The notes under the pieces are model-generated. The model made no database searches, was not told the DNA's origin, and saw only the letters and a program-made list of their open reading frames with translations. DNA of 38,605 nucleotides from Patescibacteria group bacterium (GTDB lineage Bacteria; Patescibacteriota; UBA1384; 2-12-FULL-50-11): NCBI GenBank assembly GCA_041477655.1, contig JBGOUP010000002.1:1-38605 (forward strand), given 5' to 3'. How positions within the stretch are numbered: the stretch's first letter is position 1; each line of letters opens with the position of its first letter. A program made the translations under genes and the position numbers. Positions 2,254 through 37,062 of this stretch are shown here, one piece after another.

Positions 2254-2409
2254 CTTAGCGTGCTAGGGGGTGGGAGTGCAAGGATGAGAAGCGAATACTT
2301 GGAGCTTCGAACGGAAGCCGCAAAAAATGCCAAAATATTTCTGGGGCATTTTATTGCGGCGAGCGGGGGCGGGCTTCAAGACTCCGATCCCCATACCCTC
2401 TGCAAAAAG
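2254..2409 (+). repeat. structured intergenic element, copy A
   Basis: Starts CTTAGCGTGCTAGGGGGTGGGAGTGCA. Has a hairpin GAAGC/GCTTC, then GAACGGAAG, then a 15-bp hairpin GCCGCAAAAAATGCC/GGCATTTTaTTGCGGC. Ends GATCCCCATACCCTCTGCAAAAAG. Homologous to the copies at 10726, 11636, 19086 and 35081. Confidence 0.7.
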
Positions 2410-7987: not shown

Positions 7988-8971
7988 ATGGAATCAGATC
8001 GAGACAAGAGCAACCAAGCCCAAATTACAATCCGTCGAGCCATTAGAGATTTTTTACGCGACGTCCAGGCTAGTCGTGGTTGGTCGATCTATACTTTACG
8101 TAACTACTCTCACGCCCTCGATGTTTTTTTAGCCTGGGCCAACGAGTTAAAACTTAAATACCTAAAAAGCCTGGGGCGCGACGATATCGTCGAGTTTCAG
8201 CTTCACCTGCAAAAGAGACAACAGCCAATCAGCCAAAAAACTATTAATTACTATTTAATCGCCCTGCGGAGCCTCTTGAAATACTGGACAAACGAAGACC
8301 TTGACGTTCTGGCGCCAGAGAAGGTTCGTTTAGCCAAGACCAGCCAGCGACAAATCCATTTTTTAGAGTCCGACGAGCTAGAAAAATTACTTGAGGCCAT
8401 TCCCACCAATAGTCTATCGGGAATACGTGACCGAGCCATCGTGGCCGTTCTGATCGCCACTGGGCTACGAGTCAGCGAACTGACTCAACTAAAACGAAGC
8501 CAGGTTAGTCTAAAGACCGGCGAGTTTAGTATCAGAGGCAAGGGCGGCAAGGTCCGGCCGGTTTTTCTAACCGATGTCGCCAAAACGGCCCTGGGCGACT
8601 ATATCACCACCAGACAAGACACCAACCCCTTCATTTTTATCCGTCATTACCAAAACCCCAAACTCGACAACAAAATAAAACGACCTTTAAGCGACCGGGC
8701 CATTCAGCGACTTGTCCGAAGCTTGGCCGCTCGAGCCGGCATTGTTAAACCAATCTCACCTCACAAACTTCGTCATAGTTTTGCCACTGATTTACTCCGA
8801 AACGGGGCGGATTTGCGCTCGGTTCAAGAGTTGCTTGGCCATGCCTCGGTGAATACTACCCAAGTCTACACCCATGTTACCAATCAAGCCCTGAAAGCTA
8901 CCCATCAACGTGTTCACTCTCACAATCGTCCCAAAGACGACCAGCCACTTGATCAAGACAGCCAAACATAG
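7988..8971 (+). CDS. tyrosine recombinase, XerC/XerD-like
   Basis: C-terminal catalytic box HKLRHSFATDLLRNGADLRSVQELLGHASVNTTQVYTHV and ATGLRVSEL (the Arg of RHRY). Confidence 0.85.
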   Translation: MESDRDKSNQAQITIRRAIRDFLRDVQASRGWSIYTLRNYSHALDVFLAWANELKLKYLKSLGRDDIVEFQLHLQKRQQPISQKTINYYLIALRSLLKYWTNEDLDVLAPEKVRLAKTSQRQIHFLESDELEKLLEAIPTNSLSGIRDRAIVAVLIATGLRVSELTQLKRSQVSLKTGEFSIRGKGGKVRPVFLTDVAKTALGDYITTRQDTNPFIFIRHYQNPKLDNKIKRPLSDRAIQRLVRSLAARAGIVKPISPHKLRHSFATDLLRNGADLRSVQELLGHASVNTTQVYTHVTNQALKATHQRVHSHNRPKDDQPLDQDSQT

Positions 8972-9813: not shown

Positions 9814-9821
9814 AATGACAT

Positions 9822-9916
9822 GCACGAAATCCGAAGCACGAAATCCTAAACGTTTTGAATTTGAAGTTTTGGGTTTTGAGTTTGTTTCGAATTTAGAGCT
9901 TAGAATTTCGAATTTA
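9822..9916. repeat. CGAAAT-type low-complexity inverted-repeat spacer
   Basis: GCACGAAATCC occurs twice, followed by the palindrome AAACGTTT (9848-9855), then TTTCGAATTT and AATTTCGAATTT. This fills the ssb-rpsR spacer. Confidence 0.6.
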
Positions 9917-9924
9917 ATTCTACT

Positions 9925-10134
9925 ATGAAGCGTCGAGTTGATTGCTACTTTTCTAAAAACCAGATCAAAGAGATTGATTATCGAGCCACCGATTTATTGG
10001 GTCGCTATCTCACCAGCTGGGGCAAAATCAAAGCCGCCCGGGAAACTGGCACCTGCGCCAAACACCAACGAGCTTTGGCCCAAGCCATCAAACGGGCTCG
10101 CTATCTTGGTCTGATCTCCTACGTTAAGCGTTAA
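9925..10134 (+). CDS. rpsR: 30S ribosomal protein S18
   Basis: IDYRATDLLGRYLTSWGKIKAARETGTCAKHQRALAQAIKRARYLGL is a typical S18 sequence. Confidence 0.9.
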   Translation: MKRRVDCYFSKNQIKEIDYRATDLLGRYLTSWGKIKAARETGTCAKHQRALAQAIKRARYLGLISYVKR

Positions 10135-10691: not shown

Positions 10692-10725
10692 TAACTCTAA
10701 TTATTAATAATATATTTTTATAATA

Positions 10726-10837
10726 TTTTTGTAGGGACGGGGGATTCAGAGTTTAGAAGCCCATCCCCCATCCCTACAACCCACCCCCTGGCACATCCAG
10801 ATAGGGAAGAACCAGGTCCTCTCCCTAGCACGCTCGG
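10726..10837 (-). repeat. structured intergenic element, copy B
   Basis: The minus-strand read begins CCGAGCGTGCTAGGGAG and contains CCAGGGGGTGGG. It ends in the hairpin GTAGGGATGGGGGA/TCCCCCGTCCCTAC followed by AAAAAT. Confidence 0.65.
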
Positions 10838-10902
10838 ACAAAAGAAACCGACAAAAAGCACGAAATTTTCGATCATTTTTATAAAGAAATTGGGGTGAGT
10901 GA

Positions 10903-11559
10903 TCACCCCAGAATATCTAACAGTGACTGGTCGATTTTGTAACCGACCGGTAGGACCAAACTTTCTGGGTCACGGCCGTTCCAGTGGATCTGGCCATTTA
11001 CAACCAAATTAAGGATGCGGGGGTAGAAATAACGCTCAATGCCCTTGACCCTGTCCTGAAGATGTTCGGCCCTTTCGTGGTTCTCCAGCAGAATTCTCAA
11101 CCGGAAAATGACCGGCCCATCGTCGTAATTGGCGGTAACGAAATGGGTAGTTAGCTCGGTGTAATCTGATCCAGCTTCTAAAACCGCCCGGTAGACATGA
11201 ATACCGTACATTCCCTTGCCGCCAAACTCGGGCAATGGCCCAGGATGGGAATTGATGGTTCGGCCGGGATCCATTTGGCTAAACGGTCGAAGCCAACCGG
11301 CTGATACCGCCCATTCTGCCTGGTATTTGGCCATAATTTCCTGGTAGGGCCGCTGATCAGTTCTGGGCTCAAAATGCTCAAAATTGATCCCGAGTTTCGA
11401 AGCGTGATCAAAAACACTGCCGTGAACGTGATTGCTAATCACCGCCACAATCTTGGCCTCAAGAATATTTTGTCTTGAAGCCTCTACCAAAGAACGAAAC
11501 AAACTTCCCCCGGATGTGGCAGTACCGGAGGCAAAGACGACGATATTCTCCACTGCCAA
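10903..11559 (-). CDS. formyltransferase, PurN-like catalytic domain only
   Basis: IVVFASGTATSGGSL, NSHPGPLPEFGGKG (the HxSLLP-type motif) and HFVTANYDDGPVI (catalytic Asp region). At 218 aa it has no Fmt-type C-terminal domain. Confidence 0.7.
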   Translation of the reverse strand: MAVENIVVFASGTATSGGSLFRSLVEASRQNILEAKIVAVISNHVHGSVFDHASKLGINFEHFEPRTDQRPYQEIMAKYQAEWAVSAGWLRPFSQMDPGRTINSHPGPLPEFGGKGMYGIHVYRAVLEAGSDYTELTTHFVTANYDDGPVIFRLRILLENHERAEHLQDRVKGIERYFYPRILNLVVNGQIHWNGRDPESLVLPVGYKIDQSLLDILG

Positions 11560-11635
11560 CCTCCTGATAGGTATAACTTAGATATACATTAATTTAAGTC
11601 GAGATCAATTCAAGGAGACCCTACGAGTCTCTGCT

Positions 11636-11788
11636 CTTTGAGAGGGTATGGGGATCTTACTTGGAAGCGGTCCCCTACCCTGCCGACCCCTCGCTCGGCA
11701 CTACAAAATGGCGGGAGATATTTTGCCATTTTTCGTGCCTTCCGTTCGAAAAGTCTCCCAGACTTTTCTCACACCTAGCACGCTAAGA
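11636..11788 (-). repeat. structured intergenic element, copy C
   Basis: The minus-strand read runs CTTAGCGTGCTAGG, hairpin GAAAAGTCT/AGACTTTTC, GAACGGAAG, hairpin GGCAC..AAAATGGC/GCCATTTT..GTGCC, GAGCG, GGGGACCGCTTCCAAGTAAGATCCCCATACCCTCT. Confidence 0.7.
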
Positions 11789-11801
11789 CAGAAACATGAG
11801 G

Positions 11802-11849
11802 TCACGGAGCGGTTTCTTGGAGGCTAAAGACGTTGTTGCGGGCGTTGAT
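11802..11849 (-). pseudogene. orphan 3'-terminal relic (15 codons + stop) of the giant pilus-associated gene
   Basis: The minus-strand translation is INARNNVFSLQETAP*, versus VNARNNVFSLQETSP* at the true C-terminus (19446-19493). The 26-nt core 11823-11848 is identical to 19467-19492. Confidence 0.75.
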
Positions 11850-11875
11850 CCCCAGTTTTGGAAAATTATCAATAC

Positions 11876-11905
11876 TTGACAGCAATTAGTCTTTTAAGCT
11901 ATTTT
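11876..11905 (+). promoter_or_regulatory. candidate sigma70 promoter of the RHS gene
   Basis: TTGACA (11876-11881), an 18-nt spacer, then TATTTT (11900-11905). AGGAG lies 7 nt upstream of ATG 11935. Confidence 0.35.
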
Positions 11906-11934
11906 TCAGTCAATGGTTATATTAGGAGTGGGCG

Positions 11935-14900
11935 ATGCAAGATAAAGCATCGATTATTAACCGCCTGAAATCATCCTTTGTTTATTTGTCGGTGCTTTCG
12001 CTTTTGGTGCAATCGGCACCATTTTTTATTTCTCCCGCTCGAGCCACTGAAAGTGTCGGTGATCAGTCAAAGCTGGATCAAGCTACTTATCTAAACGGAG
12101 CGGTTGAGAAGCCAGAAAAAAGAACTGCTCACTCAAAAAGCTTTGAAACATCCGATGGCAAAGGCTGGGCGGAAGTACATCAAGAGACAATCAACTACCA
12201 GGACGGCCAGGGCAACTGGCAGCCCGTTAACAATAACTTGGCAACGATTTCTGATCCAAATTATGCCTATGGCAATACCGCCAATCGTTACGCTGCTCAT
12301 TTTAAAAGCACTCTGGCAAGCGATTTCTTTGCTCTTCAGCAAGGCAGTGATCAAATTAGTTTTAGTCTACAAGGAGGTTCGTCTGTTCAAGGAACCATTT
12401 CCGGTACCACCATCATCTACCCCAATGCCCTTGCTGGCATAGACTTTGTTTACTCGACCGATTCCGATAGCGTAAAAAGCCAGTTGGTTCTCAATAGCGA
12501 ACCAACCAGTAGAATTGTTAATTACCAAGCAACACTTTCATCGGGGTTGCAGTTATCGACCGACTCCTTTGGGAATATTAAAGTGACCAATGGCTCAGGT
12601 ACAACGATCTGGACACTACCAAAACCATCAACTATCCAACCAATCACTCATGAACCGATTTTTACCAACTATTCATCTACTTCGCTCGGTTCTAATCAGT
12701 ACCAAATCGGCTTCACTATTCCTGATAATTTTTTGCCGGTGCCTGAAAAGGGCTATCCAGTAGTAATCGATCCCTCAATTGTTCTTGTAGACAGCTCTAA
12801 CACCGCCAGCAATTATGTCCTTCAAGGTGATCCGACTATTACGTATAAAAGCAGTTCAAATAACAATACCATACCCGTTGGTCATACTACTCTAGACGAA
12901 GCCCGAGCCTTCATGAAGTTTGATACCAGTAGTATCCCGGCCAATTCTTCGATAGATAGCTCTGTCTTCTCTATAACTATGCAGGAGGAACGAGCATCAA
13001 TTCCCAGAATCAAACTCTATAGTGTTACTCAAGACTGGAATCAGGATGACCTTAACTGGAATAATCAGCCGAGCGTCGCTTCAACCTTTGAGGATAGTTA
13101 CGCTAACGATGTTACCTATTCTTGGTGGAACTTTGATGTTACCAACCTAACTAAAGGCTGGTATTCCGGCTCAACTCCTAATTATGGATTTTCACTTCGC
13201 GGCCATGACCCTGGTGTTTCTCGCCGCTATTTCTTTTCCAAATACTACAGTAGCGACCCAAATAGAAAGTTTAACCCTTACGTTTTAATTTACTACCATC
13301 CGAACAGTGGCCAAGGCCCAACGCCTCCTCAGATGCTTGGAACAAAACCTTGGTGGCAAACAGTTAATAGTCCATTGGCGGTAGGTAATGCTTCAGTTAA
13401 TGTGGCCAATGGTAACTTAGCCTTCAATTTCAACGACGTGTCTGTCCAGGATCAAGGGCTCGATGTCTCGGTCAGCCACACCTACAATAGCCAAGACACT
13501 TATAACGATAAATTCGGTTACGGCTGGACAACTTCAGCCAACAAACGCCTAGTCCCCTCTCAAGACCGGAAAACCGTCTTGTACGTTGACGAGACTGGGA
13601 CCAGCTTCACCTTTAGAGATGACGACGGTAATGGCAACTACCTAGACACGCCGTACGATGCTTCTAGCGGTTTTTATAAACAGACCGATCATCGCCCAAA
13701 TGGTCTGACTTGGGGTCTGAAATACGACTCGGGCGCCGATCATTACATCGCCAAATCAAGTTCCAATATGACCTATACCTTCGATGGAAGTGGAAAAATA
13801 CTGGAAGAAAAGGACAAAAACGCCAATAAGGTTACTTATCAATACACCAGTGGCAAATTGACTGGAGTCGTTGGTAATTCCGGAAAGACCGTTAGCCTAG
13901 CTTACGACAGCAACGGTATGCTGGCCAGCGTTAAGGATTACAATGACGGCGATTCCCAATACAGCGGCAACGGTGGTATTGTTTCCTATCTCTACGACAA
14001 TGGCGATCTTAAAACCCTTAAATTCCAGCAAGAAGGCCAAAGCAATCCATTTGCTACCCTAACCTTCAACTACACCAATCATCGCCTAGATTCGATTGTC
14101 GACGCTCTCAATAACACCACTAGTTTTACTTACGATGGTAGTAAAAGAGTGACGGATATTTATGACGCCGAAAACAAACACACCAAGATTGACTACACTT
14201 CTGCCGGCCTAACCAAAGTAACCACGCCCAAATACTTCGTCGATGGTGGCGACCAAGAGAAATATATGACTGATTACTACTACCGTACGAACCCCTACTA
14301 TCAGACTGGGTTAGTTTATAGGCAGATTAGTCCGAAACTGACCAACAATCAAAATCAAACCGTTCGCAATATTACCGAGTATGACTACAACGACGACTAT
14401 CAGTTACATGCAACCACGGATCCAATTGGGGCGGTTGACGCTTCGGCATATGATGACGTATCAGGCTTCCTCTTCTACCAATATGACGAAAATCACACTT
14501 TGACCCTTGAGAAAAGTTACACTCTTTCAAATTACGACCAGGGTGATTGGCGTCTTGTTGATAGCTATGATGGCAACGGAACTCAAACAAGCTATCAATA
14601 CGACACCAACGGCAATGTCATTTACAAAGGGATTCTTGATGGCAACATTAATTTAATCCACAATCCCGGCTATGAGAGCAATGTCAGGGATCCGAATGTT
14701 TTTGACCCCAACTGCAGCTACGTAAAGCAGGGGTTAGCCGACTTTTGGTGCGGTACGGGGACTGGATCTAATAACAGAATCTACGGGGTTGACACTGGCA
14801 CTTTCAACGATGGCTCTAAATCGCAGTATGTCGGGTTCAATAACAACACAAGTAGCGGTTCGGTTAATGCTTTCCAGACAATTAATGAAGCTACCCGCCC

Positions 14901-17900
14901 GCTCCCAGACACTGACTATGTTCTGACTTGGAATTATAAAAACGACATTAGCAGTAACTTCTACGTTCAAATTGCCATTATTCATTACGATACTTGGGGC
15001 AACCAAATTGGCTCAACGATCCTTGACTCGAATCATTACTCGTCGTCGGCTTGGGATCAAAAATCGTTTAGTTTTCATACTCCTGCAACTAACTCATCTA
15101 CAGGTTATCCGTACTGGACATCAGACATATTTATGCGAGCCAAAAGTGACACCACAGGAACAAATGCTAAGGCCTGGTTTGATTCGGTCAGTTTAGAACG
15201 AGGTACTACCTCAAGTACCAGAACTGAAAAAGCAATCACCTTTACTTATACCGACGCTCTTCATTCTACGCCAACTGGCTTGCCACTTACAGAAACAACC
15301 CCTGAAGGCAAAACCGCTCATTACGATTGGGACAGTCGGGGTAATATGCTGAAAACAACTGACGCCTTAAATAAATCTACCACCTTTACATATGATGCAA
15401 ATGGCAACAAATTAACGAAGGTTGAGCCAAACGGCAATGATACTCTACTTGATCCGGACGACTACAAATATGCCTATGTCTATGACACGCGTGGTCGAAT
15501 TATCTTGGTTAAGGAAGTAAAAACTAACAACCAGACTACCTATCAATATGATGCTAACGGGAATTTGATCCAAACAACTACTCCTAATGGGCTGATTACT
15601 AAATACACTTACGATAAGGTCAACCGAGCTAAAACAATTATCAACCCATATGATTATTCAAGTAACGTTGAATATGATGCTCAAGGTAATCCGAAGGGCA
15701 TAGTCGATCCCAACTCTAACGCAAGTAGCGTTGCATACGATGGGGCTGACAGGATCGTTCAAGAAACCAACCCTGGCGGTCAGGCCACAAATTACAGCTA
15801 CGATGACAACAACAACCTCAAGAAAACTGACGAAAATGGTAAAACTTTACAGTATAACTATGACTCTACAGGCAAGTTAACTTCAGAAACTAACAATCAG
15901 CTTGGTAGTGATAAGACCATACAGTACCAATACGACAATGCCGGTAATCTAACAGTAATCAACAATCAAACCGGGGAAACCGTTAACCACACTTATTCTG
16001 CGACTGGCGAGGTAACTAAAGTAACTATCGGTGCCCAAACGACTATCTACACTCGAAATAAAAATAATCAAGTTACTAAAATTGAAAAATCTAACGGAGA
16101 CATTACCGAGTATTCATATAACGATGATGCCCAATTTGCTCATATTAAGAACTCCCGAAACAACACCCCATATCTGGAATATGATTATGGGTATGACGCT
16201 AACGGCAACAGAACTCGAATTACGACGGTCACTAATGGCAACTCGTCGGAAACTGGTTATCAATACGATAATATCAACCAGTTGACCCAAAGTGCAGTTG
16301 TTGGTGGCCTAACTACAAACTATACATACGACAACGCTGGTAACATTACACATGTAGCAATATCGACTGGCTCTTGGACTAATTACACGTACGACGGCAA
16401 TCGACTAATTAAAAAAACCACCTCGGCCGGATCAACGGAATATATTGGTTATGATGCCTCGGGTAACTTGACCAGTCGAGATACGGCAGACAAAGTTGAT
16501 TTTCTGTCTCACTTCAATAACAATCTAATCAACGCCCGAGACAATCAAGCTGGCAAAATTGAGAATTCGACTCAAGGTTATACACCTGTGTACGAAACCG
16601 GCAAGTTTAACCAAGCGCTTCAGCTTAATTCCCAAACTTATATTAGCTTTTCCTCTTCCAGTAATATTAATCCCAATACAGGCACTGTTGAGATGTGGGT
16701 TAAGCCTCATTGGAACAATGGTTCGAGCACCAGAGTTTTCTTTGATTATTACGTAGATACGAATAGTATCATCCGACTTCAGAAGACTTCTACTAATAAG
16801 CTACAGCTGTTCTACATTAGAAGTGGCGCTAATTATACGGCCACCAGTAACTCAAGCGTAACCTGGACAAACGGCACTTGGATGCATTTGGCGGCTACTT
16901 GGAATAGTACTACGGCTAAACTTTACGTTAATGGGCAAAATCTTTCATCAACCAACAGCACTTATTTTTGTGATCCTAATCTGCCATGCGATCCTCCATG
17001 GGGCGGCCGATCGCCAAAAATTGGTTTTGGTGCCACAACCGAAACCAACCCTTCTAATTACGCTGATGTTAGTTTAGACGAAGCTCGCTTATCGTCCTAC
17101 GTCCGCACCAGCTCTGAAATCTCCAGCTCTTACAATGCCACCAGCGAGTTTACCTTGCCTCACACCACTACTTACGAGTACGACTCCCACGATTACCTAA
17201 CCAAAATCACAAAACCCGACGGAACAGTTTTCGGCTATACCTATGATGCGAATAAGCGGCTAACAAAGAGAACTAAAACAAGTGCTAGCGACATCAACTA
17301 TCAGTACGATGGTGATAAATTAACTCAAGAAACTAACAACGACGGATCAATTATCAATAAATACTATTATGATTCTCAGGGGGAGATACTAAAGGTGACT
17401 CATGGCTCGAGTGATTACTTCCTAACGAGGGATGGATTAGGTGGGAGCATCTCACTTCGCGATGGCAACGGCAACAGTGCTAGTAGCTACGTATATGACG
17501 ATTGGGGTAAGCTGGTCAGCAAAACCGAACAATTTTCTATGCCCGTTCGTTATGCTAGCTATTGGTATGACGATGATGCTGGACTCTACCATATGGGAGC
17601 TCGCTGGTACGATCCTAGCATCTACAGATTCCTTAGCGAAGATCCAGACCCCGGTGATCAGAATGATTCTATCACCCAGAATGAATATGTCTACGCAAGA
17701 AATAATCCGATCAGATATACTGATCCCAATGGGAAGTTTGCATGGGCATTTACCTTGGCCGCTAATCCAGAGGTCACTGCTTTTGTTTTACTAGCGTATG
17801 CAGTGATATTACTTGCTAATAATAGCGGTATTAAGAATAGAATTGCTGGGCAATTAGGCCATATTCAGGAACACTTGGGTAAGATCAGGGATAAAGCCGG

Positions 17901-18033
17901 CCAGGTTACCCGTAACACAATTAGGGCATGGAAAAAGGAAATAGAGGTCGCAGAAAGAAGGATCAGAGAGCTTCAAAGACAATTAAATAAGAACAAAAAA
18001 CCTGGTAAGCCTTGGAAGAAAAAGGGAAGATAA
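11935..18033 (+). CDS. secreted RHS/YD-repeat polymorphic toxin (2032 aa)
   Basis: Sec-type signal ending ...SPARA/TES. A DNRLRE-like module (SVTQDWNQDDLNWNNQPS). Many YD repeats (YxYDxxGNL/YDANGN). A CBM4_9-like insert (~aa 900-1090). A LamG-like insert (WMHLAATW...LYVNGQ...LDEARLSSYVRTSSEI). An RHS core ending GARWYDPSIYRFLSEDP...NEYVYARNNPIRYTDPNG, followed by a 99-aa variable tail. Confidence 0.9.
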   Translation: MQDKASIINRLKSSFVYLSVLSLLVQSAPFFISPARATESVGDQSKLDQATYLNGAVEKPEKRTAHSKSFETSDGKGWAEVHQETINYQDGQGNWQPVNNNLATISDPNYAYGNTANRYAAHFKSTLASDFFALQQGSDQISFSLQGGSSVQGTISGTTIIYPNALAGIDFVYSTDSDSVKSQLVLNSEPTSRIVNYQATLSSGLQLSTDSFGNIKVTNGSGTTIWTLPKPSTIQPITHEPIFTNYSSTSLGSNQYQIGFTIPDNFLPVPEKGYPVVIDPSIVLVDSSNTASNYVLQGDPTITYKSSSNNNTIPVGHTTLDEARAFMKFDTSSIPANSSIDSSVFSITMQEERASIPRIKLYSVTQDWNQDDLNWNNQPSVASTFEDSYANDVTYSWWNFDVTNLTKGWYSGSTPNYGFSLRGHDPGVSRRYFFSKYYSSDPNRKFNPYVLIYYHPNSGQGPTPPQMLGTKPWWQTVNSPLAVGNASVNVANGNLAFNFNDVSVQDQGLDVSVSHTYNSQDTYNDKFGYGWTTSANKRLVPSQDRKTVLYVDETGTSFTFRDDDGNGNYLDTPYDASSGFYKQTDHRPNGLTWGLKYDSGADHYIAKSSSNMTYTFDGSGKILEEKDKNANKVTYQYTSGKLTGVVGNSGKTVSLAYDSNGMLASVKDYNDGDSQYSGNGGIVSYLYDNGDLKTLKFQQEGQSNPFATLTFNYTNHRLDSIVDALNNTTSFTYDGSKRVTDIYDAENKHTKIDYTSAGLTKVTTPKYFVDGGDQEKYMTDYYYRTNPYYQTGLVYRQISPKLTNNQNQTVRNITEYDYNDDYQLHATTDPIGAVDASAYDDVSGFLFYQYDENHTLTLEKSYTLSNYDQGDWRLVDSYDGNGTQTSYQYDTNGNVIYKGILDGNINLIHNPGYESNVRDPNVFDPNCSYVKQGLADFWCGTGTGSNNRIYGVDTGTFNDGSKSQYVGFNNNTSSGSVNAFQTINEATRPLPDTDYVLTWNYKNDISSNFYVQIAIIHYDTWGNQIGSTILDSNHYSSSAWDQKSFSFHTPATNSSTGYPYWTSDIFMRAKSDTTGTNAKAWFDSVSLERGTTSSTRTEKAITFTYTDALHSTPTGLPLTETTPEGKTAHYDWDSRGNMLKTTDALNKSTTFTYDANGNKLTKVEPNGNDTLLDPDDYKYAYVYDTRGRIILVKEVKTNNQTTYQYDANGNLIQTTTPNGLITKYTYDKVNRAKTIINPYDYSSNVEYDAQGNPKGIVDPNSNASSVAYDGADRIVQETNPGGQATNYSYDDNNNLKKTDENGKTLQYNYDSTGKLTSETNNQLGSDKTIQYQYDNAGNLTVINNQTGETVNHTYSATGEVTKVTIGAQTTIYTRNKNNQVTKIEKSNGDITEYSYNDDAQFAHIKNSRNNTPYLEYDYGYDANGNRTRITTVTNGNSSETGYQYDNINQLTQSAVVGGLTTNYTYDNAGNITHVAISTGSWTNYTYDGNRLIKKTTSAGSTEYIGYDASGNLTSRDTADKVDFLSHFNNNLINARDNQAGKIENSTQGYTPVYETGKFNQALQLNSQTYISFSSSSNINPNTGTVEMWVKPHWNNGSSTRVFFDYYVDTNSIIRLQKTSTNKLQLFYIRSGANYTATSNSSVTWTNGTWMHLAATWNSTTAKLYVNGQNLSSTNSTYFCDPNLPCDPPWGGRSPKIGFGATTETNPSNYADVSLDEARLSSYVRTSSEISSSYNATSEFTLPHTTTYEYDSHDYLTKITKPDGTVFGYTYDANKRLTKRTKTSASDINYQYDGDKLTQETNNDGSIINKYYYDSQGEILKVTHGSSDYFLTRDGLGGSISLRDGNGNSASSYVYDDWGKLVSKTEQFSMPVRYASYWYDDDAGLYHMGARWYDPSIYRFLSEDPDPGDQNDSITQNEYVYARNNPIRYTDPNGKFAWAFTLAANPEVTAFVLLAYAVILLANNSGIKNRIAGQLGHIQEHLGKIRDKAGQVTRNTIRAWKKEIEVAERRIRELQRQLNKNKKPGKPWKKKGR

Positions 18034-18377
18034 TGATTAAAAGTACAAGGAAAGATATTCAAAAGACCCTTGAAATGGTTAGTAGCTTCGAGGGAAAGTT
18101 TAAAGAAATTAGCTTAAAACACTCAAAAAGCGAGATTCTATCAAAATCTACGCTGGCGGCCGATCTAGCAGACATACAAGAGGCGGCTTTCGCAATCTCT
18201 GACCTAGTCGATAGATTGGATGAATTATTATTGACTCATAAAAATATGGCGGGAAAAGCATTGATTGATTTGACTATACAATTAGACCATATTCAGTATC
18301 ATTACAAAGAAGGCAAAAGAGATATGGAAACTCTGGCTGACCTGCTTTACGAAAAGGCAAAAAGCGACAAATCTTAG
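18033..18377 (+). CDS. small helical protein, immunity candidate for the RHS C-terminal module
   Basis: ATG 18033 overlaps the RHS stop (TAATG). It encodes a 114-aa all-helical acidic protein with no TM and no family I recognise. Position immediately 3' of an RHS toxin is the classical immunity slot. Confidence 0.5.
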   Translation: MIKSTRKDIQKTLEMVSSFEGKFKEISLKHSKSEILSKSTLAADLADIQEAAFAISDLVDRLDELLLTHKNMAGKALIDLTIQLDHIQYHYKEGKRDMETLADLLYEKAKSDKS

Positions 18378-18499
18378 GAAAGCCATTTTTTCCCTAAAAT
18401 ACCTAACTGGTAACTTGTACTACTCCAACTGGCGAATATATTGAGGATTCTAGGAAAATTTTGACAACGTATAAAATATACTATTCAGGGGAATTGTAG

Positions 18500-19084
18500 A
18501 TGACATCAAAGGAAATATCCGAGAAGTATAATAAAGGGCTTGAACACTATAAGAATAGAGATTACAAAAAAGCCCTAAAGGAATATAAAGATATTGTTAA
18601 GTTAGATCCTAATTTTAGCGATGCCGTTAATGATATCGGGCTTTGTTATTTACATCTCAAGAAATACCCTTTGGCATTAGGATACTTTGAGAAAGCAACA
18701 AGTTTAGAGCCTGAAAATTGGGTTCCTCAATCGAATATTGCAATGGCGCTTGTTGGTCAGAAAAGAAATTCAAAGGCTATACCATTTTTCCAGAAGGCGC
18801 TCAAACTGGGTGGCGATGAAGATGTGCTGTTTAATACCGCGGTTAATTTTTATGTATTAGCGGCGAAAGAACACTTAGATGACAATACTAAACAAGCCCA
18901 TCGCTATATAGACAAAGCTATTAAGCTTTATCCCAAGGATGCTGACTTCTTTGTGTTAAGGGGTGACTTGCTAAGTGATCAGAATGAGGGAGAAGCTGCC
19001 TTATATAGTTATCTGAAAGCAAAAGAGCTGGGTGATAGGTCCAAGGCTCTATCCAATAAAATCAATAAGCTCAAAGATAAATGA
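18500..19084 (+). CDS. tetratricopeptide (TPR) repeat protein
   Basis: Repeated 34-aa pattern, for example YKKALKEYKDIVKLDPNFSDAVNDIGLCYLHLKKYPLALGYFEKATSLEPEN. The gene is AT-rich. Confidence 0.8.
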   Translation: MTSKEISEKYNKGLEHYKNRDYKKALKEYKDIVKLDPNFSDAVNDIGLCYLHLKKYPLALGYFEKATSLEPENWVPQSNIAMALVGQKRNSKAIPFFQKALKLGGDEDVLFNTAVNFYVLAAKEHLDDNTKQAHRYIDKAIKLYPKDADFFVLRGDLLSDQNEGEAALYSYLKAKELGDRSKALSNKINKLKDK

Positions 19085-19085
19085 A

Positions 19086-19197
19086 TCTCCCTGGGCTCCC
19101 GCCCAGGGAATCTTCTTCTTCGCTCCGCGCCATCTTGCTTGGAAAAGCGGCGGGGGCTCTCATCCACTGGCTTCCGCCCGTGGTATCCTCGCTAAGA
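19086..19197 (-). repeat. structured intergenic element, copy E (divergent)
   Basis: The minus-strand read runs CTTAGCGAGG..., CGGAAG, CGCTTTTCCAAGCAAGAT, then the terminal hairpin TCCCTGGGC/GCCCAGGGA (19088-19109). It shares CCAAG(T/C)AAGAT with copy C. Confidence 0.45.
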
Positions 19198-19445
19198 ATA
19201 AAAAGTAACGTTGGTTGGACTTTTTGTAAAGAAGATTACACCAATGACTCCAGAGAGGAAACGGTCAAGTCCGCTATTAATTTCTCTAAGAAGCTTGAAA
19301 GGCATTGGAGCTAACAAGAAAACGCTTAGTAAAACTGCCGGAACTTCAGCGGGTATAGTTGATATAAAAGTAGCGTTTCAGCCATATCAGCGTTACTCAT
19401 CAAACCTATGTATGATCGAAGGTGCGGAGGTCATTCAGCATGGAT

Positions 19446-22400
19446 CTACGGTGACGTTTCTTGCAAGCTAAAGACGTTGTTGCGGGCGTTGACGATGAAG
19501 GCTCGGCGGACCCCGCCGTAGTAGCCAATTACCCGGTAGGTGTCGGTCTGGCCTAATGTCTGACTAGCGCTCAAGGTAAAAGCCAAATCTTCTGGGTCGG
19601 GCAACCAGTCGAGCAGGTATTTTTTATTGCTGGTGTCACACGAGCCATCAACCTTGTAGGAGCCACAGTAACTAAAGCCTCGGGCGGGATCATCGAGCGT
19701 GGTTCGGCCAGGTTGATAGACCAATGCCGCGCCAATGCCCATAGTTGTCACCAGTATCGATCCCCCGTTGTCTAAACGACTAAAGCCAGCCAGCATAGTA
19801 GTTTTATCCGAAGTCAAAGCCGGATCGTCGGTGATGTTGTTAGGATAATAACCTTCTTGCTCGGATCGACCGATGGTTGAGGCAAATGATCGCGACGGCC
19901 CAGACAGAATCATGCTGGGGCTATCGCCGGTTTTACGCCAAGCCGAGCCTGGGTTAATAACACCGAGGCTGGCTCCAGCTGTATAGCCAGAAATATCACT
20001 TTTGTCTTGGCTGGATCTTCCCATACTTCCCAAATGCCGCAATTGCTGGCCGTCGCAGGCTTGAGGACCGACGGATGGCTGGCCGACATAGGTACAGGTT
20101 TTGTCGATAGATGAGCGGGTAATTTTGAAACTATCTCGGTCTGTTGTTCCCGAAGGCAAGGCGTCATAGGCGCCGTCAATCATTCGCCTGCCGTCGAGCG
20201 TCGAGCTGCCATTATCAGCTAATGTAAATGTCTCACTGCCAGACGAGCTGGTTTCCGGCGTGCCCAGAATTCGCGGGCCAAAAACAGTCGCGTTATCAAA
20301 ATCGTGACCGTCAAATCGCTGTTTGCCACCAAAGTAGACGGCTTTGGTTACAACATTGCCGCCGATATTCTCTTGATAAACATCGAGGCCACCACCAAAC
20401 AGATTAGGCAAATCGCCACTTTGGTTTAAGCCAGACTGATTAAGTGCCCAGCCTGCCTCGTTCGCTCCCGACTTACCGGCGTTGGTCTCTTTCCAAAAAC
20501 TGCCGTCAGTACCGTAGGTAGCGCCGGTCAAAAACAAACTTGAGCTGGCGCTACTGCCACTGCCGGTGGTTATAATCGCCCCGGCACCGTCCTGGCGTGG
20601 TGCCGGTCGGTCTTTAACATTAACACTATTGTCTTTGCCACTGGCTCGAATGGCCCAGGAAATTGCCGTATTCGAGTTGGCCAATCCGCTGGTCACGTCA
20701 GTCTGCCACTCCAAAGCTCCAGCCTTATATGGGTCGAAACCGCCACCGTTCATGTAAAGTTGGTAGTTGCTCAACATTAATGACCGAACGGTTGTGCCGT
20801 CACTGACCAGACCACCAGCTAATCCAGCTAAGGATAACGGTGAAGAAATGAGTTTGGTATTGAGCTGGAGACGGACGTCACTACCGATGGTTCGGGAACT
20901 AATCTTTCCAATATAGAACTGACCAGATTCATAGCCGGCTAAAACAATCGCTCCGCGAGGTATTTGGTTAAGATCGCTAGAATTGGGCGACTTACCTAGA
21001 ACTTCAGCCGAACCATTGGTCGATAAACTAACACCCGACATGGTTTTGTTGAGCTCGCCAACATAGGCCAACGTTACCTTGGCATTTTTACTATCACCTG
21101 ACAGGCCAGTATCGCCAGGATAAGTCGAATCATGTCTAAGCACGACCTGAATTAACGAACCCGGGTGGCTTAGCCCAGCCACATTGCCATGAAAAACCTC
21201 GAAGGTATCGGCCTGTTGTCGCTCAATCGAGATCCTGGCGCCAACGGCCAGGTATTGGGAGGCGGCGTCGCTATCGGGAAAATTAACAGTCCAGCTACCG
21301 TCGCTTGGCCAACTGCCATCTGTTGGCGTTAGACCCGAGTTGTTAGCCGAAGCATCGGTAAAAATAGTGGCACTGGGCGGGAAATTTAGGACTTGCAAAC
21401 TTAACGATCCACCGGGTTTAGCGGGCGAGCTTAAGGGTAGTAGTCGCCAGGTGACTTGAGTCGAAGGGACGCTTGGCAGGTCTAGCACCCAAGTCGTAGC
21501 TGGCCGATAGGCCGAAGAATCCATCTGTTGACTACCGCCGTTAACGACCAAGTGGGAGACCCCATCTGAAGTCGTCGAAACTCGGGCGTTGGCTCCAGAC
21601 GCGGGCAAAGGAATTTTCAGGGCAGATCCTGAAGTATAATTGGTGGTGAAGTCGTTGCTACTGTCTTTCTCTTTACTGGTAAAGTAGAAGATGTTGTTGG
21701 TAATGGCCGAAACGTAACCAAATAATTCACTGTCAATTTGGTCAAAGTTAGACGGGTACTTATCCAGAGTCACTGCGTCGCCAACAGCTAAACCTTCACT
21801 CCCCGTTGTCATAACACATCCGTTGCCAGCACCGACGCAAACCAGCTCACTGTTCTGACGTTGGATCGGCTGAATACTTAAACTTTTAAGAGTGACGTTT
21901 GGGCCACCTCCATAACCAGAGATAGTGACAGTAATGATATTGTCGTTACCGTTAATGGCCGTAATTGATCCCCAGGCTCGAAACTCATTACCCGCCTGGG
22001 TTATTCCAGACAGGTAGACCTTGTCGCCTTGAGCAAACCCAGCCGCACTGCGGTAAATGGTGAAGCTGTTGGTGTCCCCGGGTGAGGTATTGATGGTTAT
22101 AGTAGCAGGGGCGGGGGGAAAATTAACCTGGGCGTTCCACTGCCATCCGGGCTTACCAGAACGATCGGCCAGGCTAGATTGAACGCGGAGAGTGTACTGA
22201 TCGCCGTTGGTAATTTTTTGAGACGCGTCAGCATTGATAACTGCTTTTTTCCAGGATTTGGCGTTTAAATCATAGAAATAGACGTCGTTACTAAAACGTT
22301 GAGCTAACCGGAAGTTGACCCGGTTGTAAGCCAAACAGAGCCTTTGGGTGGCATCAAGACAGTTACGACCGCCAGGTGAGGATCCTTCATTGCCTTGGGC

Positions 22401-32517: not shown

Positions 32518-32871
32518 TCAACGACCCAGCAGTGCCCGGACTCGTTCGATAACGGTGGCTAACAATTGTGGTGAAACTTTCTCGATATATTTGGCCTGGC
32601 GAGCAAACACATCCACGCTACGCAAATGAATGGGCAAGATCACGCCCTTCGTCTTAGTTTTCTTTAGTACTATCTCAAAAGACAGACCTCTAACTTTAGT
32701 GGTGATCGGACAAATTATGGCCAAACCTGTCCGTTCGGCTAACAACTTTGGCGAAAGAACAATGGCCGGCCGACGACCAGACTGTTCGTGGCCAGTTCTG
32801 GGATCGAGCATTAGCCAAATTATGTCGCCCTGATCTGGCGAGTATTTAGTGGTGGGCTTCGGCGCCGACAT
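32518..32871 (-). CDS. mazF: type II toxin MazF/PemK family endoribonuclease
   Basis: GDIIWLMLDPRTGHEQSGRRPAIVLSP...ICPITTK. ATG 32871 is preferred over the track's TTG at 32898. It overlaps mazE by 26 nt. Confidence 0.85.
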   Translation of the reverse strand: MSAPKPTTKYSPDQGDIIWLMLDPRTGHEQSGRRPAIVLSPKLLAERTGLAIICPITTKVRGLSFEIVLKKTKTKGVILPIHLRSVDVFARQAKYIEKVSPQLLATVIERVRALLGR

Positions 32872-33094
32872 CCACTCCCCAGTTCTGCTCACCGCCAATG
32901 TCTCTTGGCGTCACGCCAGAGAGCATGGCCGTTAGATTATTACTCTCACCAACAGGCGTGAGCACAATCGAACGGCCCTTTAAGCTAACCTTTAATTCGG
33001 CGTCGAGCTCAATTTTAGCCGCTCTCATTACTTTTTTGGGCAAACGAACACCCTGGCCGTTGCCCCATTTTTTAAGCGTTTGGGTTATATCCAT
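32846..33094 (-). CDS. mazE: type II antitoxin MazE (AbrB/SpoVT fold)
   Basis: LKKWGNGQGVRLPKKVMRAAKIELDAELKVSLKGRSIVLTP shows the looped-hinge-helix pattern. Confidence 0.8.
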   Translation of the reverse strand: MDITQTLKKWGNGQGVRLPKKVMRAAKIELDAELKVSLKGRSIVLTPVGESNNLTAMLSGVTPRDIGGEQNWGVDVGAEAHH

Positions 33095-35025: not shown

Positions 35026-35080
35026 AGCAAAAACATATACTCCTTATAAACTTGCCGCAATGCCTACGAAGTTTGTTTGC

Positions 35081-35200
35081 CTGAGCGTGCTAGGGGGTGG
35101 GAGTGCAGAAGGTAGGGGGACCGCTTCGTGGATTCAACCAGCTCACCACCCTGAGTACAATCGAAGGGCAGTAGATCCCCCTACCTTCTGCAAAAGAAAA
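35081..35200 (+). repeat. structured intergenic element, copy D
   Basis: CTGAGCGTGCTAGGGGGTGGGAGTGCA includes a 24-mer identical to copy A. A perfect 16-bp hairpin GCAGAAGGTAGGGGGA (35105-35120) / TCCCCCTACCTTCTGC (35175-35190) follows, then CAAAAGAAAA. Confidence 0.7.
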
Positions 35201-35216
35201 AGGGCCGGTAGGCCCT
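35191..35216 (-). terminator. groEL rho-independent terminator
   Basis: The minus strand reads AGGGCC tacc GGCCCT followed by TTTTCTTTTG. It is 23 nt past the groEL stop. Confidence 0.7.
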
Positions 35217-35239
35217 TATCTTTTTCGCGGATGCGAAAT

Positions 35240-36898
<1,659 letters not shown>

Positions 36899-36904
36899 TT
36901 AAGT

Positions 36905-37062
36905 ATGGTTGTCGAAGTAAATGCGAAATTCTAAGCCCGAAACTCGAAACAAGTTCTAAATTCCAATCTTCCAAATTCGAAACTCGAAATCCGAAATTTG
37001 TTATATTATTTTGAATTTTCATACTTAAATTTGTTTGGTGATTCGAAATTTGTGCTTGGTGC
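36905..37062. repeat. CGAAAT/CGAAAC low-complexity repeat filling the groES-groEL spacer
   Basis: GCGAAAT, CCGAAAC, TCGAAAC, TCGAAAC, TCGAAAT, CCGAAAT and TCGAAAT are all on the plus strand. They lie within the 191-nt gap between the groES stop and the groEL ATG. Confidence 0.65.

Follow-up and report, generated by a model that had tools for sequence, protein, structure and literature searches.

A hairpin-rich intergenic repeat in four copies within 38.6 kb of a Patescibacteria genome

Families of small, structured repeats have been described from the intergenic DNA of several bacteria. The pneumococcal BOX, RUP and SPRITE elements are read as parasitic, given their reduced density in a sister species, their absence elsewhere and their excess between convergent genes, and BOX is modular, with an optional internal module (PMC3049150). 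Repetitive extragenic palindromes (REPs) are likewise biased to convergent genes, bacterial interspersed mosaic elements (BIMEs) are associated with recombination, and the ERIC elements of Enterobacteriaceae are imperfect palindromes of about 127 nt (PMC3184786). Here we describe a hairpin-rich intergenic repeat, present in four copies in 38.6 kb, that forms an undescribed family. The DNA is a stretch of 38,605 nt from a Patescibacteria group bacterium (GenBank assembly GCA_041477655.1, contig JBGOUP010000002.1, positions 1 to 38,605), which we refer to as the window. The genomes of this group, for which Candidate Phyla Radiation (CPR) is another name, are tiny and tightly packed. The repeat is built from a core, S, and an optional module, I, and we call it the S/I element. 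Like BOX, RUP and SPRITE, it is a small non-coding interspersed repeat of under 200 nt with extensive predicted stem-loops; unlike them, it resides in another phylum, in an ultrasmall CPR bacterium, and it shares no sequence similarity with them.

The four copies lie at 2241–2409 (+; copy A), 10726–10848 (−; B), 11636–11800 (−; C) and 35070–35200 (+; D). They are 120–170 nt long and, being small, non-coding, dispersed and multi-copy (four in 38.6 kb), correspond in size and copy number to miniature inverted-repeat transposable elements. All lie between open reading frames (ORFs), as an earlier, sequence-only reading of the window had stated, and every shared word and hairpin listed in that reading is present. 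The starts given there proved too short, as the element begins about 12–14 nt earlier, with a T-rich leader ending in TGYC. By sequence comparison, the copies are clearly related to one another. The window contains exactly four occurrences of the 11-mer AGCGTGCTAGG, one per copy (A, 2257 (+); B, 10834–10824 (−); C, 11784–11774 (−); D, 35084 (+)), against 0.41 expected even at one mismatch. In nhmmer searches, A and C aligned over their whole length (E = 2.7e-13), A and D over only the first ~34 nt, and A and B over only the last ~58 nt. A and D have a 30-mer in common at 97% identity, and the longest near-exact stretch between copies is 30 nt, including an exact 24-mer. The result is a patchwork, in which different pairs of copies have near-identical segments in common. 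Both long forms, A and C, were recovered by nhmmer and by covariance models of S and of I. The short form B was supported by its AGCGTGCTAGG match, the S covariance model and the recovery of its junction in two JGI contigs, while D, a short form with a P1 loop of ~50 nt, is the positional ortholog of a copy in a relative (copy F, below).

A fifth copy had also been proposed, at 19086–19197 (−). This sequence, E, is hairpin-rich intergenic DNA that carries the words TTAGCG, GGATGAGAG and CCGCTT(TT)CCAAGYAAGAT in family order, each common to different members. Its membership is nevertheless unsupported: nhmmer comparison with A–D and F returned nothing at E ≤ 10, neither the S nor the I covariance model matched it at that threshold, and its z in global alignment against the core sequences was at most 2.1, a score that 10 of 300 shuffles also attained. 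We rejected E as a copy on these three results; it could be a relic in decay, or the resemblance could be due to chance.

The core S, of about 90 nt, runs from the T-rich leader ending in TGYC through (Y)(K)AGCGTGCTAGG and a G-rich tract, GGGGTGGG, to a hairpin, P1, and an A-run. The P1 consensus is GCAGAAGGTAGGGGGA ... TCCCCCTACCTTCTGC, followed by AAAAG, and the ends of the element read ...TGYC-YKAGCG (5') and ...CTGCAAAAAG (3'). Module I, of 80 nt, is nested in S in three of the five known copies (A, C and F). It comprises, in order, GA, a hairpin H1, the linker TTCGAAC(G/T)GAAG, a hairpin H2 with the loop CAAAATA.., and the tail GAGCG. The earlier suggestion that modules are shuffled between copies is borne out: excision of 80 nt from A (2286–2365) and C (11692–11770) leaves two 92-nt cores that can be aligned end to end at 83% identity, and these align end to end with B and D at 77–88% identity.

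The position of module I within S differs between copies. In A, the 5' part of S (2241–2285, +) holds the leader, AGCGTGCTAGG, GGGGTGGG and the first half of the 5' arm of P1, GCAAGGAT. Module I (2286–2365, +; covariance model match of 104 bits) follows inside that arm, at GGAT/GGGG, and the 3' part of S (2366–2409, +) resumes with GGGG, the loop, the 3' arm of P1 (2389–2403) and AAAAAG, so that the 5' arm of P1 is split by the module (GCAAGGAT / I / GGGG). The module itself reads GAAGC/GCTTC for H1, TTCGAACGGAAG for the linker and GCCGCAAAAAATGCC/GGCATTTT-A-TTGCGGC for H2, with the tail GAGCG. In C, the 5' part of S (11771–11800, −) is followed by module I (11692–11770, −) directly after GCTAGGTGT and before the G-rich tract, 15 nt farther upstream in S than in A (GCTAGGTGT / I / AGGGGTCGG); P1 is whole and lies downstream, in the 3' part of S (11636–11691, −), where 11671–11681 pairs with 11643–11654. 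Module I thus occupies two different sites in S, in a single orientation and each time with a T before it and an (A)GGGG run after it, with the junctions GGAT/GGGG, GGGT/AGGGG and GTGT/AGGGG and without duplication. No stand-alone module I was found by covariance model in the window (filters off) or in 150 kb of relatives. A reading of module I as encoding a small protein was discarded, as A and C have different ATG-initiated frames and F lacks an ATG. A 24-nt segment of groEL (35356–35379, +) is 88% complementary to the 3' end of the module in C; we regard this match as chance, since the segment encodes conserved GroEL residues and its synonymous sites differ in the relative.

The short forms vary in other ways. 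B carries an unrelated 35-nt hairpin insert (10789–10823) right after AGCGTGCTAGG, at the site of module I in C, and its P1 (about 10730–10779) has 15–17 pairs, one of them U-G. The P1 of D, TGCAGAAGGTAGGGGGA / TCCCCCTACCTTCTGCA, had been described as a perfect 16-bp hairpin; it is indeed perfect, with 17 pairs (35104–35120 with 35176–35192). The P1 loop measures 16–19 nt in A, B and C and ~50 nt in D. A pseudoknot proposed for D makes use of this loop and, as the loop occurs in D alone, lacks comparative support. Within B, 10756–10788 (−) contains five G-runs with short spacers (GGGGGTGGGTTGTAGGGATGGGGGATGGG), a classical G-quadruplex pattern that would compete with P1; the other copies have only three runs of at least three G in one stretch.

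The helices of the element are maintained while their sequence changes, as expected of a structured RNA or a folded single-stranded DNA. The compensatory changes noted earlier are real, with both sides changed at 8 positions over the three helices P1, H1 and H2. In module I (A, C and F), 5 of the 20 pairs that make up H1 and H2 are changed on both sides and 91.7% of cells are paired, a value equalled by 1 of 500 column shuffles and compared with 37–49% in slid controls. In P1, 3 of 17 positions are changed on both sides across A–D. These counts come from three sequences for module I and four for P1, too few for a formal covariation test. Whereas the stems of module I vary, its unpaired linker, loop and tail (TTCGAAC-GAAG, CAAAATA and CGAGCG) are invariant in three copies from two genomes. 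The module in F has five unpaired cells, and its hairpins are partly decayed. Both strands fold about equally well, with modest element-strand z-scores for A (−1.5) and D (−1.4). Three wobble pairs fall on the element strand (U-G in P1 of B, G-U in H2 of F and G-U in P1 of C), and two C-A mismatches in F become wobbles if the opposite strand is read; a choice of strand by this count, three against two, is indecisive.

Searches for relatives of the family in databases were negative. When the whole window was searched against Rfam 15 (gathering score and E ≤ 10), only two tRNAs passed and the elements had no match; a mir-3202 match overlapping B scored 21 bits, where the gathering score is 90 (E = 7.2), and is noise. 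Scans for exact words gave 55 single hits in 185,579 GTDB species genomes, 10 hits in IMG metagenomes, and 4, 15 and 0 hits in IMG/VR viral contigs, all chance words of which none extended under blastn or nhmmer. Plasmid and phage blastn searches gave no match, a search for the A junction via identical proteins, and for an extension past the window, yielded nothing new, and a full-text search of a paper library listed no CPR paper that also mentions MITEs or REPs. These results bear out the claim that the family is undescribed.

We next compared the window with related genomes. Housekeeping genes neighbour the copies, namely EF-P, S6-SSB-S18, NDK, GroES/EL, a type IV pilus-like operon and a Xer-like recombinase. 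The best named relatives of its GroEL are metagenome-assembled genomes of Berkelbacteria and Saccharimonadales (76–80% identity), and a syntenic EF-P locus (L104) comes from GCA_035510775.1, where EF-P is named Candidatus Saccharimonadales. By these relatives, the host belongs to the CPR/Patescibacteria and is Saccharimonadia-like. Short contigs of the same population, L056 and L057, were found in the JGI samples 3300052990 and 3300052991. The junction S18 / EF-P / B / start of purN was recovered at 99–100% identity in both, that is, in two independent assemblies, which argues against a chimeric assembly at that junction. Over 281 nt of the B junction, the sole difference between the window and L057 is a T/A change at 10789 (about 693 in L057), the last base of the 35-nt insert of B, where the insert meets the G-rich tract.

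The nearest other organism has a GroEL that is 88% and an EF-P that is 58% identical to those of the window. Two of its loci, L068 and L098, adjoin each other on a single 180-kb contig; together they provide 42 kb that are largely syntenic with window 2437–29500. By nhmmer and covariance models, these 42 kb contain exactly one copy, F (L068, about 11693–11893, −), just beyond the groEL terminator and antisense to groEL, at the same site and in the same orientation as D. F has the architecture of A, with module I in the 5' arm of P1, but a long P1 loop like that of D. Without module I, F aligns end to end with D (67% identity, z = 5.2); given this alignment at a shared groEL-distal site, D and F are probably orthologous. 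No copy was found in the loci of relatives with ~83% identical GroEL or of two further EF-P-syntenic genomes (about 177 kb of relatives' loci were scanned in all, by nhmmer and the two covariance models), and the two GroEL-83% relatives that we read have plain terminators after groEL. The density of the element thus falls from four copies in 38.6 kb to one in 42 kb in the nearest relative and none in the loci of the others.

The element is well conserved between these two genomes. Module I shows 80% identity between A and F and 79% between A and C, which belong to the same genome, and the S part of F is 67–81% identical to the S copies of the window. Among eight shared genes compared at the nucleotide level, groEL is 78% identical and the other seven, including efp and the NDK, MraY-like, bPH_2, T2SSF and Xer genes, are 60–64% identical. 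At this distance, neutral intergenic DNA would keep nothing. The explanations that remain are that the family is constrained, through its own propagation or a host function, that it has moved between lineages, or both.

Examining the genomic context revealed that copies A, B and C lie at breaks of synteny. None of the three is present at the orthologous intergenic sites in the relative, where the neighbouring genes differ too and the spacers measure 36–42 nt, compared with 200–375 nt in the window organism. A lies between the convergent genes TrmB-like (1487–2230, +) and bPH_2 (2437–2940, −), at the end of synteny: bPH_2 is kept in the relative, and the gene on the 5' side is TrmB-like here and a serine hydrolase there, with a 42-nt spacer. 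The TrmB-like genes at variable sites of the two genomes do not represent one cassette, being only 23% identical. In the relative, the stop codons of EF-P and of a giant Kelch-repeat gene are 36 nt apart, while 8.75 kb separate them in the window (10692–19445). On the minus strand this stretch, missing from the relative, begins after the Kelch stop with 250 nt, E, and a TPR gene, a 121-aa ORF and an RHS-repeat gene (these three antisense), and continues with an orphan Kelch 3' end, C, purN, the purN terminator and B, to the EF-P stop. The orphan Kelch 3' end (11804–11848), which has its own stop, is a 45-nt direct repeat of 19448–19492 at 89% identity. It corresponds to the last 15 codons and the stop of the 1643-aa Kelch-repeat gene, with the second copy 7.6 kb off, and the two repeats flank the RHS-repeat gene (11935–18033), the 121-aa ORF and the TPR gene. 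The duplication looks like the result of an insertion into, or a displacement of, the 3' end of the Kelch gene.

Within this stretch, B and C bracket purN in direct orientation, and the relative has no purN at this locus. C is separated from the orphan Kelch copy by about 16 nt and from purN, which lies downstream, by 77 nt. B, at a distance of 34 nt from the EF-P stop, comes after an intrinsic-terminator-like hairpin of purN (10891–10910, −; TGGGGTGATCACTCACCCCA then ATTTCTTTAT) and hence lies beyond the end of the purN transcription unit. The purN-like formyltransferase (10903–11559, −) has its best homologues, at 47–49% identity, in other Patescibacteria (among 5.8 billion proteins). It is likely a horizontally acquired or rarely retained gene. 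A search of its homologues for orthologous B and C sites gave a best match of 49% identity.

At the groEL site, D abuts a bidirectional terminator-like hairpin after groEL (35200–35217), of which plain equivalents follow groEL in element-free relatives, and is antisense to the gene. All three genomes compared differ on the 5' side of the element here: there is a 214-aa orphan ORF in the window, a gene of 166 aa in L068 and one of 268 aa in L069/L071, from a strain of the relative; in that strain the 5' half of the element is gone, with the break inside the P1 loop. ORFs that adjoin the copies, the 214-aa ORF among them, had no family or PDB match. Overall, A, B and F lie between convergent genes, and for B and F the upstream gene's terminator comes before the copy. 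The 3' end of A, B, D and F is turned toward a conserved neighbour and the 5' end toward variable DNA, a polarity that, over four cases, is no more than suggestive. No sigma-70-like promoter was found upstream of A–D, although CPR promoters are poorly known, and a terminator scan detected none inside the element, only beside it: what comes after P1 is an A-run on the element strand and C-rich sequence on the other strand, so that the element is no intrinsic terminator. In the first 30 kb of the window there are eight intergenic regions of at least 100 nt, of which three hold a copy and one more holds E.

A second, unrelated family of AT-rich repeats with TTTCGAATTT-like units occurs at 9860–9923 (+) and 36911–36974 (−), or 9814–9935 and 36880–37062 in a wider alignment. 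It is located in the ssb-rpsR and groES-groEL gaps, co-oriented with the operon, where the relative has 2–9 nt, and the 111-nt ssb-rpsR gap recurs in L056. Its presence in operon gaps indicates that the organism accumulates intergenic repeats generally.

Taken together, these results lead us to favour, with confidence somewhat above even, a family of small, lineage-restricted repeats interspersed in intergenic DNA, comparable in general kind to REP/BIME, ERIC, Correia and pneumococcal BOX/RUP/SPRITE, which is probably selfish. The sequence-only reading had offered a non-coding RNA or a REP-like family as alternatives; the balance leans to the latter, and nothing was found that demonstrates the former. 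The REP-like reading is based on the high density in one lineage, low density in its nearest relative and absence from farther ones; on non-orthologous positions, the mosaic nested build and long, near-perfect stems; on the siting beyond terminators or between convergent genes, with neither a promoter-like site (A–D) nor an internal terminator; and on the breakpoints in or at copies, together with the second repeat family. It follows the same reasoning as that of Croucher et al. for BOX, RUP and SPRITE (PMC3049150). Copies would spread and reshuffle at the DNA level, mobilised by a trans-acting enzyme encoded outside the sequence examined, by recombination and gene conversion between copies, or by both; the latter processes would explain the patchwork of near-identical segments. 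The hairpins may be kept because a folded single strand, as DNA during mobilisation or as RNA in read-through transcripts, is recognised or tolerated. Copies would build up where insertion harms least, beyond terminators and between convergent genes, and would then mark, and perhaps promote, breakpoints of gene content.

The S/I element can be compared with described classes. As in BOX (boxA-boxB(n)-boxC; PMC3049150), the internal module is optional and the outer pairing is undisturbed, although boxB forms tandem repeats at a fixed position and module I occurs singly, at two. The S/I element shares with BOX, RUP and SPRITE an over-representation between convergent genes and a distribution that is sparser in the sister lineage and absent further out, and with SPRITE the lack of an obvious autonomous partner; unlike BOX and RUP, it shows neither clear terminal inverted repeats nor target duplications. 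With REP, BIME and REPIN (PMC3184786) it has in common GC-rich imperfect palindromes, intergenic siting, the bias to convergent genes and mosaic motifs, as well as an association with recombination and rearrangement and hairpins conserved by compensatory change. REPs, however, are 20–40 nt long, number in the hundreds, often alternate in orientation and are tied to RAYT transposases. The S/I unit is 90–200 nt long with a 40-nt non-palindromic 5' part, its copies are single and unclustered, and no RAYT is encoded among the scanned ORFs; it is thus not made of 20–40-nt palindromes in alternating clusters, the unit that defines REP/BIME. ERIC-type elements have terminal inverted repeats and TA flanks (PMC3184786), show no sequence similarity to the S/I element and are spread across a whole bacterial family, whereas the S/I element was seen in two lineages only. 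They are alike in size class, in the single long imperfect hairpin, in conservation across fairly distant genomes, in their transcribed or 3' intergenic location and in having variants enlarged by discrete internal insertion at defined sites. The longer ERIC variants, attributed to Wilson and Sharp (2006), reportedly arise by ~70-nt insertions at specific internal sites.

Several observations weigh against this interpretation. No transposase, RAYT, Y1/HUH or other mobilising enzyme is encoded among the ORFs scanned in the window and the relatives' loci. There are no clear terminal inverted repeats, as the ends are complementary over only 3–6 nt (TTTTGT/ACAAAA in B, TGC/GCA in A and D), and no target-site duplication, as no direct repeat flanks A–D or module I. 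A clean pair of filled and empty sites was not found either: neighbours differ at the A, B and C sites, and L069 keeps half of F. D and F appear to have been inherited vertically at one locus, so that copy would have been stable for long. Identity of the element between genomes (80% for I, 67–81% for S) equals or exceeds that of every shared gene except groEL, whose 78% falls within the range, and unpaired segments more conserved than the stems, as seen in module I, would be the pattern expected of a functional structured RNA. Finally, only five copies are known, so any copy number per genome is an extrapolation.

A rival explanation is a functional structured RNA family, acting either in cis on the 3' side of transcripts (as a stabiliser, processing site or insulator) or as a multi-copy small RNA. 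P1, H1 and H2 would then form the architecture, and the single-stranded AGCGUGCUAGG, UUCGAACGGAAG and CAAAAUA the recognition surfaces. Such a function would account for the changes on both sides of the helices at 8 positions, for module I segments that stay invariant between genomes whose EF-P proteins are 58% identical, and for an element more conserved (67–80%) than seven of eight shared genes (60–64%; groEL, 78%). The three wobble pairs on the element strand would fit too, as would the orientation of the copies, four of five being co-oriented with the 5'-side gene and D as well but for the inserted 214-aa ORF. We nonetheless consider it unlikely. A–D have no promoter-like site upstream, the element has no terminator of its own, and the terminators of the upstream genes precede B and F. 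The opposite strand is about as stable, the z-scores of A and D are modest and, as the C-A mismatches of F would be wobbles if the other strand were read, neither strand is clearly indicated. Module I breaks the 5' arm of P1 in A and F, not in C, the P1 loop ranges from 16 to ~50 nt, and the distribution is very narrow, with relatives managing without the element at the same sites. Moreover, compensatory-looking changes in hairpins can also come from template switching within a palindrome.

The positions of the copies could alternatively reflect a hairpin recombination or transposition end that travels with adjacent genes, at the 3' end of small cassettes of gene, terminator and element. Its folded single-stranded DNA would be recognised by a recombinase or HUH/Y1 enzyme encoded elsewhere, by the logic of attC sites or of IS200/IS605/RAYT ends. 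This reading, which we judge less likely still than a functional RNA, draws on the direct repeats B and C around a purN that is missing in the syntenic relative and has homologues at most 49% identical, on A following a TrmB-like gene missing at the relative's site, and on the 3' ends of A, B, D and F at conserved flanking genes with 5' ends at variable DNA. The insertion of module I, site-specific, in a single orientation and free of duplication, is typical of single-strand transposition. Like attC and IS200/IS605-type ends, the element conserves structure above sequence, in its stems, has conserved ends and a variable centre, and lies on the 3' side of variable genes, with orientation-specific, duplication-free insertion for module I at least. 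But the polarity comes from four cases (about p = 0.1) and one comparison genome, and the element has no relation to the 45-nt duplication that flanks the RHS segment. Inspection of the sequences showed no attC core sites (RYYYAAC/GTTRRRY; R''/R') at the element ends, with no GTTRRRY within or adjoining the 3' ends of A–D. The copies are dispersed on both strands and not arrayed as attC sites are, and they have a long non-palindromic 5' segment. No integron integrase (intI) is in view, no Y1 transposase is nearby and no Y1/HUH protein is encoded among the scanned ORFs; the only tyrosine recombinase (7988–8971) is the syntenic Xer-like one, which element-free relatives also have. In a bolder form, to which we assign a slightly smaller chance again, S/I elements would be single-strand-folded recombination ends that mobilise neighbouring genes, a cassette-capture system of ultrasmall symbiotic bacteria unrelated in sequence to integrons or IS200/IS605. 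TrmB-like plus A, and purN plus its terminator and B, would be cassettes, C would be a resident site, and module I a smaller element targeting T/(A)GGGG in S. Least probable of all, in our estimate, the copies are immobile, functionless relics of an old segmental duplication and gene conversion, or an artefact of metagenome assembly. The partly decayed hairpins of F, with their five unpaired cells, and E, possibly a decayed copy, would suit relics, and the metagenomic source would suit an artefact, since repeats can seed chimeric joins. Conservation between genomes at or above that of shared coding genes and stems kept by compensatory change argue against neutral decay, while the recovery of the B junction in two independent assemblies from two samples, and a longest near-exact stretch (30 nt) below usual assembly k-mers, argue against an artefact.

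The interspersed-repeat reading that we favour places a previously undescribed family among repeats of the known REP, ERIC and BOX kind. Its CPR host, its conservation on a par with groEL, a nested module with a defined insertion site and its location at breakpoints of gene content set it above a routine case. Occupying half of the larger intergenic regions, if the one with E is counted, the family offers a handle on gene gain and loss in reduced genomes. If the elements are transcribed or serve as recombination sites, they would represent a new means of regulation or gene capture in bacteria that are now coming within reach of genetics. If merely selfish, they would be of use as markers for strain typing and would be a cause of assembly breaks. 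Because their hairpins show covariation, selfish repeats of this kind would be false positives in screens for non-coding RNA.

Other features of the window lie apart from the copies. A terminator-like hairpin occurs at 31122–31157 and again at 31811–31848, 690 nt apart and at 86% identity, with the form GGCGG(G/T)GTGGA-loop-TCCAC(T/C)CCGCC followed by ATTTTGTTT. A similar hairpin, CCGGCGGCGTGGATTTTCCACCCGCCGG then TTTTTATTT, is found after the 166-aa gene of the relative (L068, about 11930–11965). It may be a third small repeat family or a terminator typical of the lineage. Two unusually long regions without convincing ORFs or Rfam hits (29482–29861 and 30018–30650) surround the tRNAs at 29862–29934 and 29946–30017 (−). 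From about 29.5 to 35 kb, the gene content is unlike that of the relative and includes toxin-antitoxin genes (PemK/MazF, 32518–32898; Fic/Doc, 31847–32233). Two strains of the relative were also compared: at about 11700–20000, L068 and L069 encode identical GroEL proteins with different groEL neighbours (Pyr_redox and the 166-aa gene in L068, the 268-aa gene in L069), and a Replic_Relax gene is present in both, together with small ORFs of the sort typically seen in integrated mobile elements.

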